A stretch of 64,000 bases of DNA from a phage, in sequence record PX915676.1. The stretch is one strand, 5' to 3'. Shown here piece by piece: positions 9,470 through 11,572 of this stretch. The position numbers and the translations under genes were made by a program. The notes below the pieces were generated by a model that made no database searches, was not told where the DNA came from, and saw nothing but the letters and a program-made list of their open reading frames with translations. The first letter of the stretch is position 1. Each line of letters begins with the position of its first letter.

Positions 9470-9490
9470 GTGCCTCTGATAAAGGGGCAC
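9470..9490 (+). promoter_or_regulatory. stem-loop upstream of the amidotransferase gene
   Basis: GTGCCTC-TGATAAA-GGGGCAC, 7-bp stem with one G-U pair; no T-tract after it. Confidence 0.3.
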
Positions 9491-9541
9491 AATTTAAAGG
9501 TTAATTAGATGAAAGGGTTTACCCTTCAGGTGGATTAGAAA

Positions 9542-11572
9542 ATTTGTGGCATCGTATTAGCTGGCGGTAATCTGTCAAGCACTGATTTAGACGTATTCAA
9601 CCAACTCTTTTACGCTGGAGTATTCCGAGGACAACATTCCTCCGGTATCTTTGGTCAGCGTAAAAGTACTAAGGAAGTCTTCACTTATAAAGAAGCTCTT
9701 CCTTCTTTCGCATTCATCCTACAAGATGAGTACAAGAAGCACACCACTGGTGAGACAGCTTACACTGTAGCACCTTCATGGATTGTTGGTCACAGTCGTC
9801 ATGCAACGAAAGGTGCAGTTAACGCCAAGAACGCCCATCCTTTCCAACATGGTAACATCACTCTGGTTCATAATGGAACCTTGATGGACCAAGATCTGTT
9901 ACCTGACAGCAAAAACTTCGAGGTAGACAGTGAGAACATCTGCCACTCTATTAACACTATTGGTGCAGCAGAGACTATTCAAAAGCTGGATGGTGCTTTC
10001 ACTTTAATCTGGCATGATGCTTCTGATAACCGTCTTCATATCATCCGTAACGAAGAGCGTCCATTCCATCTCGCACGTTGTAACAGAGATTGGTTTGGTG
10101 CTTCTGAAGAAGACATGTTGATGTGGATTCTGAAGCGTTCTAAGTCTCATAAGAACCGTATTGATGAGCATTTTGAATGTAAAGTTGGTACAGAATATAT
10201 CTTTGATATGTCAAACAACAGCATGACTCTGGTTGAAGAGGTCGCCCACGAGCTTCCGGTTTTTACGGTAATCAATCGTTGGGGCAATTACTACTCGAAC
10301 AACTACAGCCAAAGCAACTATCAAAGTTCCTCAAAAAGCAATACAAGCAATCCTTACGACACGAAGCCGGGAGTGACAGCGGCAGACGTTCGTCGAAGAA
10401 ACGCAGTGGTAAGTCAAAACAAAATCGCAAGCGATCGAAACATTGATATTCGCCGCGATATGACTGTGGAAATCACTCCGCATGAGTTTGTTCCTTATGC
10501 AACTGCTGGTGCTGTTCCTTCTCGTGGTAAGATGATTGGCTATATCTACGATGAGAAGTCTCAAGAGTACATCGAAGGTGATGCTCATAATGTAGACATT
10601 AAGGCTTATCAGGATGCACTGAAAGACCCTAAGATCGTTTACCGTGGGACAGTATCCTGCATCTCCGAAGTCAATGCTATGGTCCGTTTAGTGATCACAG
10701 CAGGTCGTTTTGTTGACCCATCTCTGGAGAAAAAGGAGCCTGAGTCAACTACTGCTGACTTCGATGATGATATCCCTTTTGATATGAATGATAGTTTCGT
10801 CAACAAGAATGGCGTTACTATCACTCGTAAATTCTGGGAAGCACACTCTCATGGTGATTGTGGTGGTTGTGACAAACACATTGATTGGAAAGATGCACCT
10901 AAAGCAGTCTTCGCATATCAATGCTACTGGCATCCTGAGTGTCTGGAAGGTTTGACTAAACCTAAAGAGGAAGAAGAGGAGGAAACTCCTATTGGTGTTT
11001 GTGAAATCTGCGGTGAAGTTAAAACAGAGAATGAGTTCGATGATGAACTTAGTCGTCTTCGTGGTGAAGATATCTGTAAAGTCTGCGCTGTAGAAGTAAA
11101 GAAGAAAGTATCTAATGCTACGATCAAAGATGGTTATGTATGGATTAAAGCAACAGATACAACAAACGCCCGTCGTCCTGAATTTGCTTTACGTGTAACT
11201 GAAGATATGATTGGTCGTATGACTGTATTACCTTCCTCAGCGAAACAGACAGGCATCACTCTGGAGGATGTTGTTGATGCTTATGTTGAGAAACGTAGCA
11301 ACAGTATTTTTGCAATCTCAACTAAGCCAAAAAAGGAGGAACCTGCTGAGAAAGCAGGTGTGTTTCCTGAATCACGAACAGCTCTCCGCAAAACTGTTGT
11401 CAGCTTCGACGGAAACCGAAGCACTGACTTCACCAAAGCCATGTGGTCAACCCTCGGATACTGCTCAGAGTGTTTTAAGCAGATTCCGTGGCGCGATGCT
11501 GAAAGTTGTACGCTTGGTTCTATGAATCAAGTTTATTGTAATTCTCCTAAATGTTCATTGAATAGAGGTTAA
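9542..11572 (+). CDS. class II glutamine amidotransferase (Ntn-hydrolase) domain protein with long Cys-rich C-terminal extension; non-canonical start
   Basis: Frame translates ...TAG-AAA-ATT-TGT-GGC = stop-K-I-C-G-I-V-L-A-G-G..., then GHSRHATKG, NAHPF, LVHNGTL; no in-frame ATG/GTG/TTG before the Cys codon; AGGTGGA SD 7 nt before ATT 9542; C-terminal half has three CxxC-type Cys clusters. Confidence 0.7.
   Translation: MCGIVLAGGNLSSTDLDVFNQLFYAGVFRGQHSSGIFGQRKSTKEVFTYKEALPSFAFILQDEYKKHTTGETAYTVAPSWIVGHSRHATKGAVNAKNAHPFQHGNITLVHNGTLMDQDLLPDSKNFEVDSENICHSINTIGAAETIQKLDGAFTLIWHDASDNRLHIIRNEERPFHLARCNRDWFGASEEDMLMWILKRSKSHKNRIDEHFECKVGTEYIFDMSNNSMTLVEEVAHELPVFTVINRWGNYYSNNYSQSNYQSSSKSNTSNPYDTKPGVTAADVRRRNAVVSQNKIASDRNIDIRRDMTVEITPHEFVPYATAGAVPSRGKMIGYIYDEKSQEYIEGDAHNVDIKAYQDALKDPKIVYRGTVSCISEVNAMVRLVITAGRFVDPSLEKKEPESTTADFDDDIPFDMNDSFVNKNGVTITRKFWEAHSHGDCGGCDKHIDWKDAPKAVFAYQCYWHPECLEGLTKPKEEEEEETPIGVCEICGEVKTENEFDDELSRLRGEDICKVCAVEVKKKVSNATIKDGYVWIKATDTTNARRPEFALRVTEDMIGRMTVLPSSAKQTGITLEDVVDAYVEKRSNSIFAISTKPKKEEPAEKAGVFPESRTALRKTVVSFDGNRSTDFTKAMWSTLGYCSECFKQIPWRDAESCTLGSMNQVYCNSPKCSLNRG

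Follow-up and report, generated by a model that had tools for sequence, protein, structure and literature searches.

Introduction

The AUU start codon of infC, the gene for initiation factor 3 (IF3), makes its translation inversely sensitive to IF3, and in the class II amidotransferases GlmS and PurF the initiator Met is removed and Cys1 is exposed. Here we analyse a phage gene at which these two features appear to be combined, namely gene 83 (the homologue of phi32_83), predicted to encode a class II glutamine amidotransferase (GAT), which lies in a stretch of 64,000 nucleotides of sequence record PX915676.1 (the whole stretch is called the window below) from a phiEco32-like coliphage (Kuravirus, Gordonclarkvirinae). 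The genes infC and pcnB have the only two confirmed non-canonical starts in Escherichia coli (Hecht et al., bioRxiv 10.1101/063800). Like them, gene 83 combines an AUU start with a Shine-Dalgarno (SD) site, and its weak codon appears to be selectively kept rather than an error. It differs from them in being a phage gene whose start is locked by an N-terminal nucleophile at the next residue, in the alternation of ATT with ATC and TTG among GAT genes, and in a hairpin that abuts the SD site within a module linked to a mobile element.

With GlmS, PurF and AsnB the phage GAT shares a predicted Cys1 nucleophile produced by Met removal and the conserved Arg, Asn-Gly and Asp positions; unlike them, it has no recognisable synthase or acceptor domain, carries a Cys-rich C-terminus of about 445 residues, and has amidoligase, COOH-NH2 ligase and ATP-grasp genes as neighbours. 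The propeptides of Bacillus subtilis PurF and of GltB-type enzymes are an alternative route to Cys1 that does without Met-Cys processing; they need an upstream in-frame start with no intervening stop, whereas in the window a TAG interrupts the frame. The third group of related systems comprises free-standing phage homing endonucleases, such as the seg and mob genes of T4, mobE in Aeh1 nrdA, and F-CphI next to psbA. The genes described below resemble these in that an HNH_3 open reading frame (ORF) lies next to or within a conserved gene, in presence/absence polymorphism with sharp junctions, and in decay after fixation (in phage BUCT695). They differ in that the cassette sits exactly between codon 1 and codon 2, takes the SD site and ATG of the host gene, and supplies a hairpin, an SD site and a weak start.

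The best explanation of the locus as a whole, and in our judgement a very probable one, is that translation of the GAT starts at AUU 9542-9544, the codon before the Cys codon, and is served by a hairpin-SD-spacer module, for which an origin in an HNH cassette is rather probable. The Met would then be removed, leaving Cys1; AUU initiation still uses fMet-tRNA, and deformylase and methionine aminopeptidase trim a Met-Cys terminus, as they do in GlmS and PurF. By sequence comparison, the weak codon is served by a fixed arrangement of a hairpin abutting the SD site, a strong SD site, a 7-nt A-rich spacer and AUU, in which SD site, spacer and hairpin may together compensate for the codon. The hairpin might keep the SD site single-stranded or stack on the helix formed by the SD and anti-SD sequences and, because it overlaps the stop codon of the upstream gene in many loci, it may also act in the capture of ribosomes after termination. 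We propose that an HNH cassette inserts between ATG and TGT, takes over the old start signals and gives the host gene a substitute start, and that the phiEco32 lineage would have kept the module without the endonuclease, as a relic of the invasion.

The start of gene 83 and the enzyme it encodes

Between 9000 and 12000 the window is 97.6-98.5% identical to the 30 best-matching records, phiEco32 and SU10 among them. The frame of gene 83 reads ATG 9509-9511, AAA GGG TTT ACC CTT CAG GTG GAT, TAG 9536-9538, AAA 9539-9541, ATT 9542-9544, TGT 9545-9547, GGC. The original prediction, made from the letters of this stretch, held that the Cys codon follows an in-frame TAG with no ATG, GTG or TTG in between and that AGGTGGA lies 7 nt before the ATT, and both statements are borne out, the spacer being TTAGAAA. 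From the ATT the frame is open to its stop at 11570-11572, and its 676 codons are intact in all relatives.

The predicted product is a class II (N-terminal nucleophile, Ntn) GAT. It scores 54.9 bits against Pfam GATase_6 (cut-off 27) and 27.4 bits against GATase_7 (cut-off 25), and the residues C1, G2, R28, G29, N110, G111, D128 and S129 are invariant across 12 diverse homologues. A profile built from the alignment of these homologues matches the glutaminase domain of E. coli GlmS (1xff) over residues 1-199 with an E value of 8.6e-14, with Cys1 on Cys1 and the RG, NAHP, HNG and D motifs in register, as expected of an enzyme in which Cys had been proposed to be the first mature residue. In this alignment R28-G29, N110-G111 and D128-S129 correspond to the GlmS glutamine-site residues Arg26, Asn98-Gly99 and Asp123, and the Cys at profile position 1 also aligns with Cys1 of PurF (1ecb). 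A search of the PDB with the single sequence was too weak to place the Cys, which was placed by the profile search instead. Three PHROG profiles have the Cys at position 2, straight after Met, and tblastn matches all start at residue 1 of the GAT query. At a nucleotide divergence of about 29%, codons 1-112, which precede the first canonical in-frame start, show about 42 differences that are synonymous and 25 that are non-synonymous, and G82, H83, R85 and N96-F100 within them are also invariant; by these measures they are clearly coding. Together with the alignment of Cys1, this places the beginning of the protein at the Cys or at the codon directly before it.

All 97 Kuravirus and Suseptimavirus records, which are independently sequenced genomes, match over the 61-nt leader with an identity of 98.3% or more, and ATT was read in every sequence of this lineage inspected, so that a sequencing error, raised earlier as a possible refutation, is excluded. 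Among ten Gordonclarkvirinae sequences with about 70% identity to the window across 1.9 kb, the fraction of invariant columns is 0.98 in the block 9494-9549, against about 0.5 in the flanks and a range of roughly 0.2-0.7 elsewhere. By comparison of genomes, the leader arrangement is thereby shown to be under strong purifying selection.

The coding sequence (CDS) begins at the ATT in the GenBank records of phiEco32 (EU330206, phi32_83), SU10 (SU10_085) and Bas91 (Bas91_0078), so that the ATT start, taken by itself, had already been annotated. Elsewhere the annotated start is late: in SU7-like records it is the ATG of codon 10 (site 9572), which the window lacks, in the record of phage Paul it lies near 9881, close to codon 113, with the loss of the catalytic Cys and about 112 residues, and in the VPp1, Klyazma and T4S1 records it is 4-53 codons downstream; in some other related records no CDS was called. 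Start annotation was discordant at loci L003, L018, L020, L021, L273, L277 and L028, and every late start strips the catalytic Cys from the deposited protein. The truncations are artefacts of gene calling, in which ATT is not among the starts considered. Since ATT and ATC are ignored, database proteins of the GAT family are often wrong, and truncation deletes the catalytic Cys in many phage genomes. The GAT protein of SU10 was detected by proteomics with 9 peptides (PMC4281155). No experimental support for, or discussion of, the ATT start was found in the literature searched, which did not cover the phiEco32 genome and transcription papers, and searches for an ATT start with amidotransferase and phage, or for a homing endonuclease with a start codon, returned nothing specific.

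Recurrence of ATT and ATC starts in the GAT family

Homologous phage loci were surveyed in two collections for the codon before the Cys codon. In IMG/VR, 80 loci were retrieved and 78 scored, with manual correction applied, and the codon was ATG at 61 loci, ATT at 12, ATC at 2 and TTG at 3, with 2 unresolved; in metagenomes, where 79 of the 80 loci retrieved were scored, it was ATG at 62, ATT at 14, ATC at 1 and GTG at 2. ATT or ATC (ATY) stands before the Cys codon in about 18% of the roughly 160 loci of both surveys. The upstream frame was checked across the IMG/VR set: no in-frame ATG, GTG or TTG occurs from the nearest upstream stop to the Cys codon at 12/12 ATT loci and at the ATC locus L065, and the sole exception is the ATC locus L055, which has an ATG in frame 12 codons upstream. 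At ATY loci the distance back to the nearest in-frame stop is not conserved and ranges from 2 to 20 codons; in the window this stop is 2 codons before the ATT, and at L095 the ATT follows immediately after a TAA.

The ATY loci are spread over a neighbour-joining tree, and many of them have an ATG locus as sister. The codon also changes between close relatives, being ATT versus ATC in the near-identical pair L065/L170 and ATT versus TTG in the near-identical VPp1/WD615, while the related loci L150 and L156 have a common hairpin stem and SD-spacer, yet ATT in one and ATC in the other. The recurrence, the upstream stops and the swaps among ATT, ATC and TTG favour direct ATY initiation over a leader ORF or readthrough as general mechanisms. 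ATT initiation followed by Met removal, the preferred option of the original prediction, is with these observations and the stronger SD sites of ATY loci the best-supported reading. As far as our searches show, the recurrence of ATY starts in the GAT family is new, and dozens of natural, evolutionarily maintained AUU and AUC starts with a defined structure provide a test case for the use of near-cognate starts and for a readout of IF3 during infection.

ATG stands straight before TGT in all more distant orthologues (Proteus phage P59, Cronobacter phage A24, Salmonella phage 7-11, Vibrio phage Vp_R1 and Aeromonas phage 4_4572) and likewise in several metagenomic sequences with 63-67% identity. 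On this comparison ATT is the derived state in the Kuravirus/Suseptimavirus lineage, because the more distant orthologues all have ATG. Orthologues with an ordinary ATG before the Cys codon had been named as grounds for giving up the proposal, and most orthologues are literally of this kind; ATT use here is not refuted by them, given that the leader with ATT is conserved in its own right and recurs. The suggested comparison of orthologues found the succession of leader, TAG and ATT kept in the lineage of the window and in BUCT695, with the leader ORF lacking in other ATY lineages.

A hairpin and a strong Shine-Dalgarno site accompany ATY starts

In the window the 3' end of a small hairpin (hairpin 2, Table 1) lies 16 nt before the ATT and abuts the SD site. 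The segment GGATTAGAAAATTTGTGG is identical in the window, T4S1, L030/L091 and L140, despite GAT N-terminal domains that are only about 32-35% identical to that of the window in T4S1 and L030. In the oyster-associated Melvirus phage T4S1 (GAT N-terminal domain 35% identical), the leader reads ...AGGGGTTGTGACCCCTAGGAGGATTAGAAAATTTGTGG, and its hairpin shows a compensatory change from AAGGG/CCCTT to AGGGG/CCCCT; a perfect SD site, the spacer of the window and ATT follow, with no upstream ATG and with two in-frame TAGs. The leader of Aeromonas phage BUCT695 (Grimontviridae) is 92% identical to that of the window, ATT included, and the N-terminal domain of its GAT is 55% identical at the protein level.

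The criterion for a hairpin, applied to distinct ATY loci, was a stem of 5 or more pairs closing a loop of 3-6 nt. Such a hairpin is present in 20/30 distinct ATY loci, where mononucleotide shuffles predict 2.1, and its 3' end is always at -14, -15 or -16 from the start codon. It occurs in 6/102 canonical-start loci (Fisher's exact test for 18/27 ATY against 6/102 canonical loci, p 9e-11), and the SD sites of ATY loci are predicted to pair more strongly with the anti-SD sequence than those of ATG loci (median -9.0 versus -6.5 kcal/mol, p 1.8e-05), with the caveat that ATY loci are phylogenetically non-independent and that these p-values are indicative and overstate the evidence. The stems of 5-7 bp are unrelated in sequence (AAGGG, AGGGGT, TCAAGCT, GAACCT, AGACTAA, ACGACA, AATGC, GTAGCC, TGTGTTG, CCGTA, CCTGA, GCTAC, TAAGCC and GTCGG), and it is thus the structure rather than the sequence that is conserved. 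Within the window, the GAT gene is the only long ORF with a non-canonical start that is preceded by the module. As far as our searches show, a defined hairpin-SD module accompanying ATY starts is new.

ATY loci without an HNH gene and their ATG sisters are distinguished by indels of about 46-78 nt at the start site. At one of them, L058, comparison with the ATG sister L155 reveals a cassette of about 78 nt with the hairpins CCCATT-GGA-AATGGG and then AGACTAA-TTTA-TTAGTCT, which mirrors the layout of hairpins 1 and 2 in the window. Module-like geometry with a canonical start is also found on the minus strand of the window, where a 730-codon ATG-started ORF at 53524 follows the hairpin GCTCCC-TTCG-GGGAGC, ending at -16, and then AAGGAG.

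An HNH cassette between the first two codons

At several ATY loci the ORF directly upstream encodes an HNH_3 (His-Me finger) endonuclease with a C-terminal helix-turn-helix, and no HNH was found upstream of canonical-start loci in the GAT-side sample. Approached from the endonuclease, the 12 closest IMG/VR relatives of this HNH family are all (12/12) immediately upstream of a GAT gene, which starts with ATT at 9, ATC at 2 and ATG at 1, the last being that of Pseudomonas phage UFV-P2. Named phages with HNH-linked GAT genes are included in Table 1. The family matches Phormidium phage Pf-WMP3 with 38% identity, at a locus that is presumably the I-PfoP3I gene. I-PfoP3I is a nicking HNH homing endonuclease characterised from Pf-WMP3 (PMC3428280).

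The Vibrio phages IME271, VPp1 and WD615, about 99% identical in both flanks, represent the empty site and two filled alleles. IME271 (L278) reads ...AAGAAAAGGTATTAAATT ATG TGTGGAATTGTAGGC and has no HNH. VPp1 (L273) keeps the IME271-type leader and ATG and carries a 464-nt HNH insertion that extends exactly from after the ATG to before the TGT; the 3' end of this cassette consists of the hairpin CCCAGC-GTG-GCTGGG, TAAGGTGA, a 6-nt spacer and ATT. The old GAT ATG now opens a 2-codon ORF, ATG GTA TAG (L273 235-249), with the HNH ATG 4 nt further on, and because this ORF ends 3 nt short of the HNH ATG, translation of the endonuclease appears to be coupled to the old ribosome-binding site of the host gene. 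In WD615 (L274) a different HNH allele replaces 40 nt of the old leader, the right junction is again exactly at TGT, and the start is TTG. The junctions in VPp1 and WD615 indicate that in these phages the module belongs to the mobile cassette and that the insertion site is ATG/TGT. Over the first about 150 nt of coding sequence both filled alleles differ from IME271 only at +9, by a synonymous T-to-C change (codon 3, ATT to ATC) 8-9 nt from the junction, which could be a co-conversion marker or a change conferring immunity on the target site.

A group I intron as the vehicle of the HNH insertion was rejected, as the gaps of 6 nt and 74 nt before the HNH ORF leave no room for a ribozyme, and Klyazma and CVT22, considered as a second pair of filled and empty sites, are too diverged. 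As far as our searches show, an HNH cassette that inserts between codon 1 and codon 2 and is tied to the module is new, and the literature searched held no description of a cassette that takes the SD site and ATG of its host gene and supplies a surrogate module. Insertion exactly between the first two codons, together with a surrogate start, amounts to an unusually precise gene invasion, and the model is directly testable with the culturable empty and filled phages IME271, VPp1 and WD615.

A second kind of homing endonuclease at the GAT start site is possible: at L096 (IMG/VR 3300037755_000063) the ORF ending 1 nt before the ATT-started GAT has the LAGLIDADG-like AGLFCGEGS and no Pfam match. 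L096 is the one ATT locus that lacks a hairpin as well as an HNH.

Alternatives to direct initiation at ATT

Termination and reinitiation after the leader, also raised in the original prediction, is the alternative that survives best. Ribosomes would translate the leader ORF from ATG 9509 to TAG 9538, melt hairpin 2, stop 3 nt before the AUU and reinitiate, with the ORF required or boosting in this lineage. The ORF is preceded at 8 nt by a weak AAAGG and persists in every Kuravirus and Suseptimavirus genome and in BUCT695, and stop-proximal ATT starts do exist in the GAT family, since at the HNH-linked loci L194, L201 and L207 the ATT lies 1-4 nt past the stop of the HNH ORF. However, no other ATY lineage has a leader ORF, as T4S1 with its two in-frame TAGs illustrates, and the distance to the nearest in-frame stop varies over the range of 2-20 codons given above. 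Moreover, BUCT695 has two changes from the window in the leader ORF, in the hairpin loop and in the SD core, and as both are non-synonymous (F to L and V to A), the constraint on the leader looks to act on RNA rather than on the peptide. The block TAGATGAAAGG, which holds ATG 9509 and precedes the hairpin loop, is also present in the ATG-type phage A24, and there it is out of frame with the GAT. We consider reinitiation improbable, and the leader ORF is probably incidental.

That the N-terminal 112 codons are untranslated, with a start at TTG 9881 or a decaying gene in which ATT-Cys has no function, is highly improbable; several GenBank records do begin the CDS near 9881 or at codon 10, but the excess of synonymous changes and the invariant catalytic residues in codons 1-112, as well as the frame kept intact in all relatives, stand against it. 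Scarcely credible, finally, is readthrough of the TAG from ATG 9509 with autocatalytic removal of a 12-residue propeptide as in B. subtilis PurF, for which the leader ORF is in frame and the would-be propeptide similar in length to that of PurF, but the only tRNA in the window is a tRNA-Arg (anticodon TCT, 382-457), with no suppressor tRNA encoded, TAG is the ordinary stop of 4/52 long ORFs of the window, the route is unworkable at ATY loci that lack an upstream in-frame start or where a stop abuts the ATT (L028, L095), and the well-placed SD site before the ATT would be left unexplained.

Points against the proposed module and its origin

Several observations weigh against direct AUU initiation from a module of HNH-cassette origin, in addition to the non-independence of the ATY loci noted above. 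As regards initiation itself, AUU, AUC, AUA and CUG initiate at 1-2% of AUG in E. coli reporters (bioRxiv 10.1101/063800), so that one has to suppose either some enhancement or that little of the protein is needed. AUU is described as competing poorly under some conditions and as sensitive to context (PMC5499595), and IF3 as the factor that discriminates against non-canonical starts (PMC9723500). The leader folded alone is no more stable than its shuffles (z 0.04), and in Pseudomonas phage UFV-P2 the HNH-linked GAT has ATG and no hairpin.

As regards origin, no HNH of this family was found in the 64-kb window (best tblastn E 0.69), and the 31 nt between the amidoligase stop and the invariant block leave no room for one between 9462 and 9494. 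In A24, the block TAGATGAAAGG includes the native SD site, and phiEco32 and BUCT695 share 93% identity over the final 30 nt of the leader and 40-50% past +30; neither fits a simple origin of the kind seen in VPp1. BUCT695 does retain a decayed HNH, the last ORF of which ends 45 nt before the ATT. It consists of a 29-codon N-terminal fragment with the motif CWxWTG...DGYP, whose ATG overlaps the stop of the upstream gene, and a separate helix-turn-helix fragment. The leader segment downstream of this remnant (the TAGATGAAAGG block) is similar to the native promoter and leader of ATG-type relatives, and the history of the lineage was therefore not a simple insertion as in VPp1. The pair of empty and filled alleles is seen for the Vibrio phages; none exists for the lineage of the window.

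Two variants of this history were rejected. Alignment with ATG-type relatives speaks against ATG 9509 as an original GAT start that outlasted the deletion of a VPp1-like cassette, since the homologous ATG of A24 precedes the true start and is in another frame, and a long co-conversion tract between phiEco32 and BUCT695 is contradicted by similarity that does not reach into the coding region. On balance, we hold it to be rather probable that the Kuravirus/Suseptimavirus module is the relic of an HNH invasion from which the endonuclease has since been lost.

Why a weak start codon is kept

The retention of ATY in place of ATG might reflect low or IF3-responsive expression, or protection of the junction from the endonuclease, or hitch-hiking with the cassette followed by stabilising selection. 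A doubtful possibility, to which we give some weight, is that the ATY start is the outcome of conflict with a homing endonuclease that targets ATG/TGT, and not mainly an expression setting. The start codon could not move, because Cys must be residue 1, and the target could be spoiled silently only at the start codon (ATG to ATT, ATC or TTG) and at nearby wobble positions. Compensation for the weak codon would then come from the hairpin and the strong SD site, and phiEco32-like phages would keep the module as an immunity allele without the endonuclease. If this is true, the identity of the start codon in the GAT family is driven by a selfish element.

Other features of the leader and the locus

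The coordinates of the features are collected in Table 1. The hairpin that the original prediction placed just upstream of the leader is real, although with 8 pairs, one of them G.U, rather than 7 bp. Its loop is GATAA, GACAA, GGTAA or GAAA in relatives, and its stem shows a compensatory change from T-A to C-G in SU7-like phages (GCGCTCT/AGGGCGC). It is probably a terminator, a processing element or a stability element after the amidoligase gene.

Table 1. Features of the gene 83 locus in the window and HNH-linked GAT starts in other phages
Feature	Position	Strand	Basis or remark
Upstream gene, phi32_84 homologue, Amidoligase_2 family	8359..9462	+	Pfam PF12224, E 4.5e-08; ORF list; phiEco32 annotation; stop TAA 9460-9462
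Hairpin 1, arms GUGCCUCU / AGGGGCAC, 8 pairs including one G.U, loop GAUAA	9470..9490	+	Minimum free energy fold
Invariant leader block, 56 nt, most conserved stretch in 1.9 kb	9494..9549	+	Comparison of ten Gordonclarkvirinae sequences
Leader ORF of 9 codons, MKGFTLQVD*, in frame with GAT	9509..9538	+	Present in Kuravirus/Suseptimavirus and BUCT695
Hairpin 2, AAGGG 9513-9517, loop UUUA 9518-9521, CCCUU 9522-9526	9513..9526	+	Centroid fold
SD site AGGTGGA, core GGTGG	9528..9534	+	Direct reading; GGCGG in BUCT695, GGAGG in other lineages
A-rich 7-nt spacer TTAGAAA, holding in-frame TAG 9536-9538	9535..9541	+	Sequence shared with distant loci
Predicted initiation codon ATT	9542..9544	+	No canonical start from TAG 9536 to Cys 9545; GenBank CDS starts; ATT/ATC swap in relatives
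Predicted full GAT CDS, 676 codons and stop	9542..11572	+	Translation; PHROG 4736, E 5e-202, Cys at profile position 2
Predicted class II (Ntn) GAT domain, Cys1 codon TGT 9545-9547	9545..10240	+	Pfam, profile alignment, invariant residues
First canonical in-frame start, TTG, 112 codons past the Cys codon	9881..9883	+	ORF list; phage Paul annotation starts near here
HNH-linked GAT start ATT, Vibrio phage VPp1			
HNH-linked GAT start ATT, Vibrio phage 275E43-1			
HNH-linked GAT start ATC, Klebsiella phage Klyazma			
HNH-linked GAT start TTG, Vibrio phage WD615			
HNH-linked GAT start TTG, phage T2S1			
HNH-linked GAT start ATT, phage T4S1			

The minimum free energy fold of the leader includes an alternative hairpin, GGUUUACC/GGUGGAUU, which would sequester the SD site; it was rejected, as both BUCT695 substitutions break it. 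Rfam 15 yielded no family for the leader, the best matches reaching 16.7 and 14.2 bits where the gathering scores are 44 and 70. A sigma-70 scan found nothing on the plus strand of the leader. On the minus strand, in the first codons of the GAT (9578-9551), there is a sigma-70-like match of 10/12 (TTGACA, 16-nt spacer, TACGAT), at about the frequency expected from shuffles.

Several ATG-type relatives (L004, L005, L006, L036 and L040) have a AATGTAAA-type or TTTAAATGTAAA-like motif immediately 5' of the SD site, at about 20-30 nt from the ATG. The published promoter motif of phiEco32 gp36 is tAATGTAtA (PMC4281155); the AATGTAAA-type motif resembles it and the TTTAAATGTAAA-like motif matches it. 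The homologous stretch of the window, 9493-9505, is TTTAAAGGTTAAT, which is invariant although degenerate; were it still to act as a promoter, the 5' end of the transcript would carry hairpin 2.

The C-terminal region of the GAT contains several CxxC pairs, and no Pfam family matched its approximately 445 residues. Gene 83 belongs to a cluster that comprises a COOH-NH2 ligase gene (6929-7735), an uncharacterised ORF (7745-8362), the amidoligase gene (8359-9462), the GAT gene itself (9542-11572), two small ORFs and an ATP-grasp gene (12016-13209). In relatives the neighbours of the GAT also include a gamma-glutamyl cyclotransferase (GGACT) gene and a class I GATase/peptidase C26 gene. Klebsiella phage Klyazma (L277) and Citrobacter phage CVT22 (L279), both of the genus Citrovirus, have two amidotransferase genes a few hundred bases apart, the downstream one of which is of the Ntn type.

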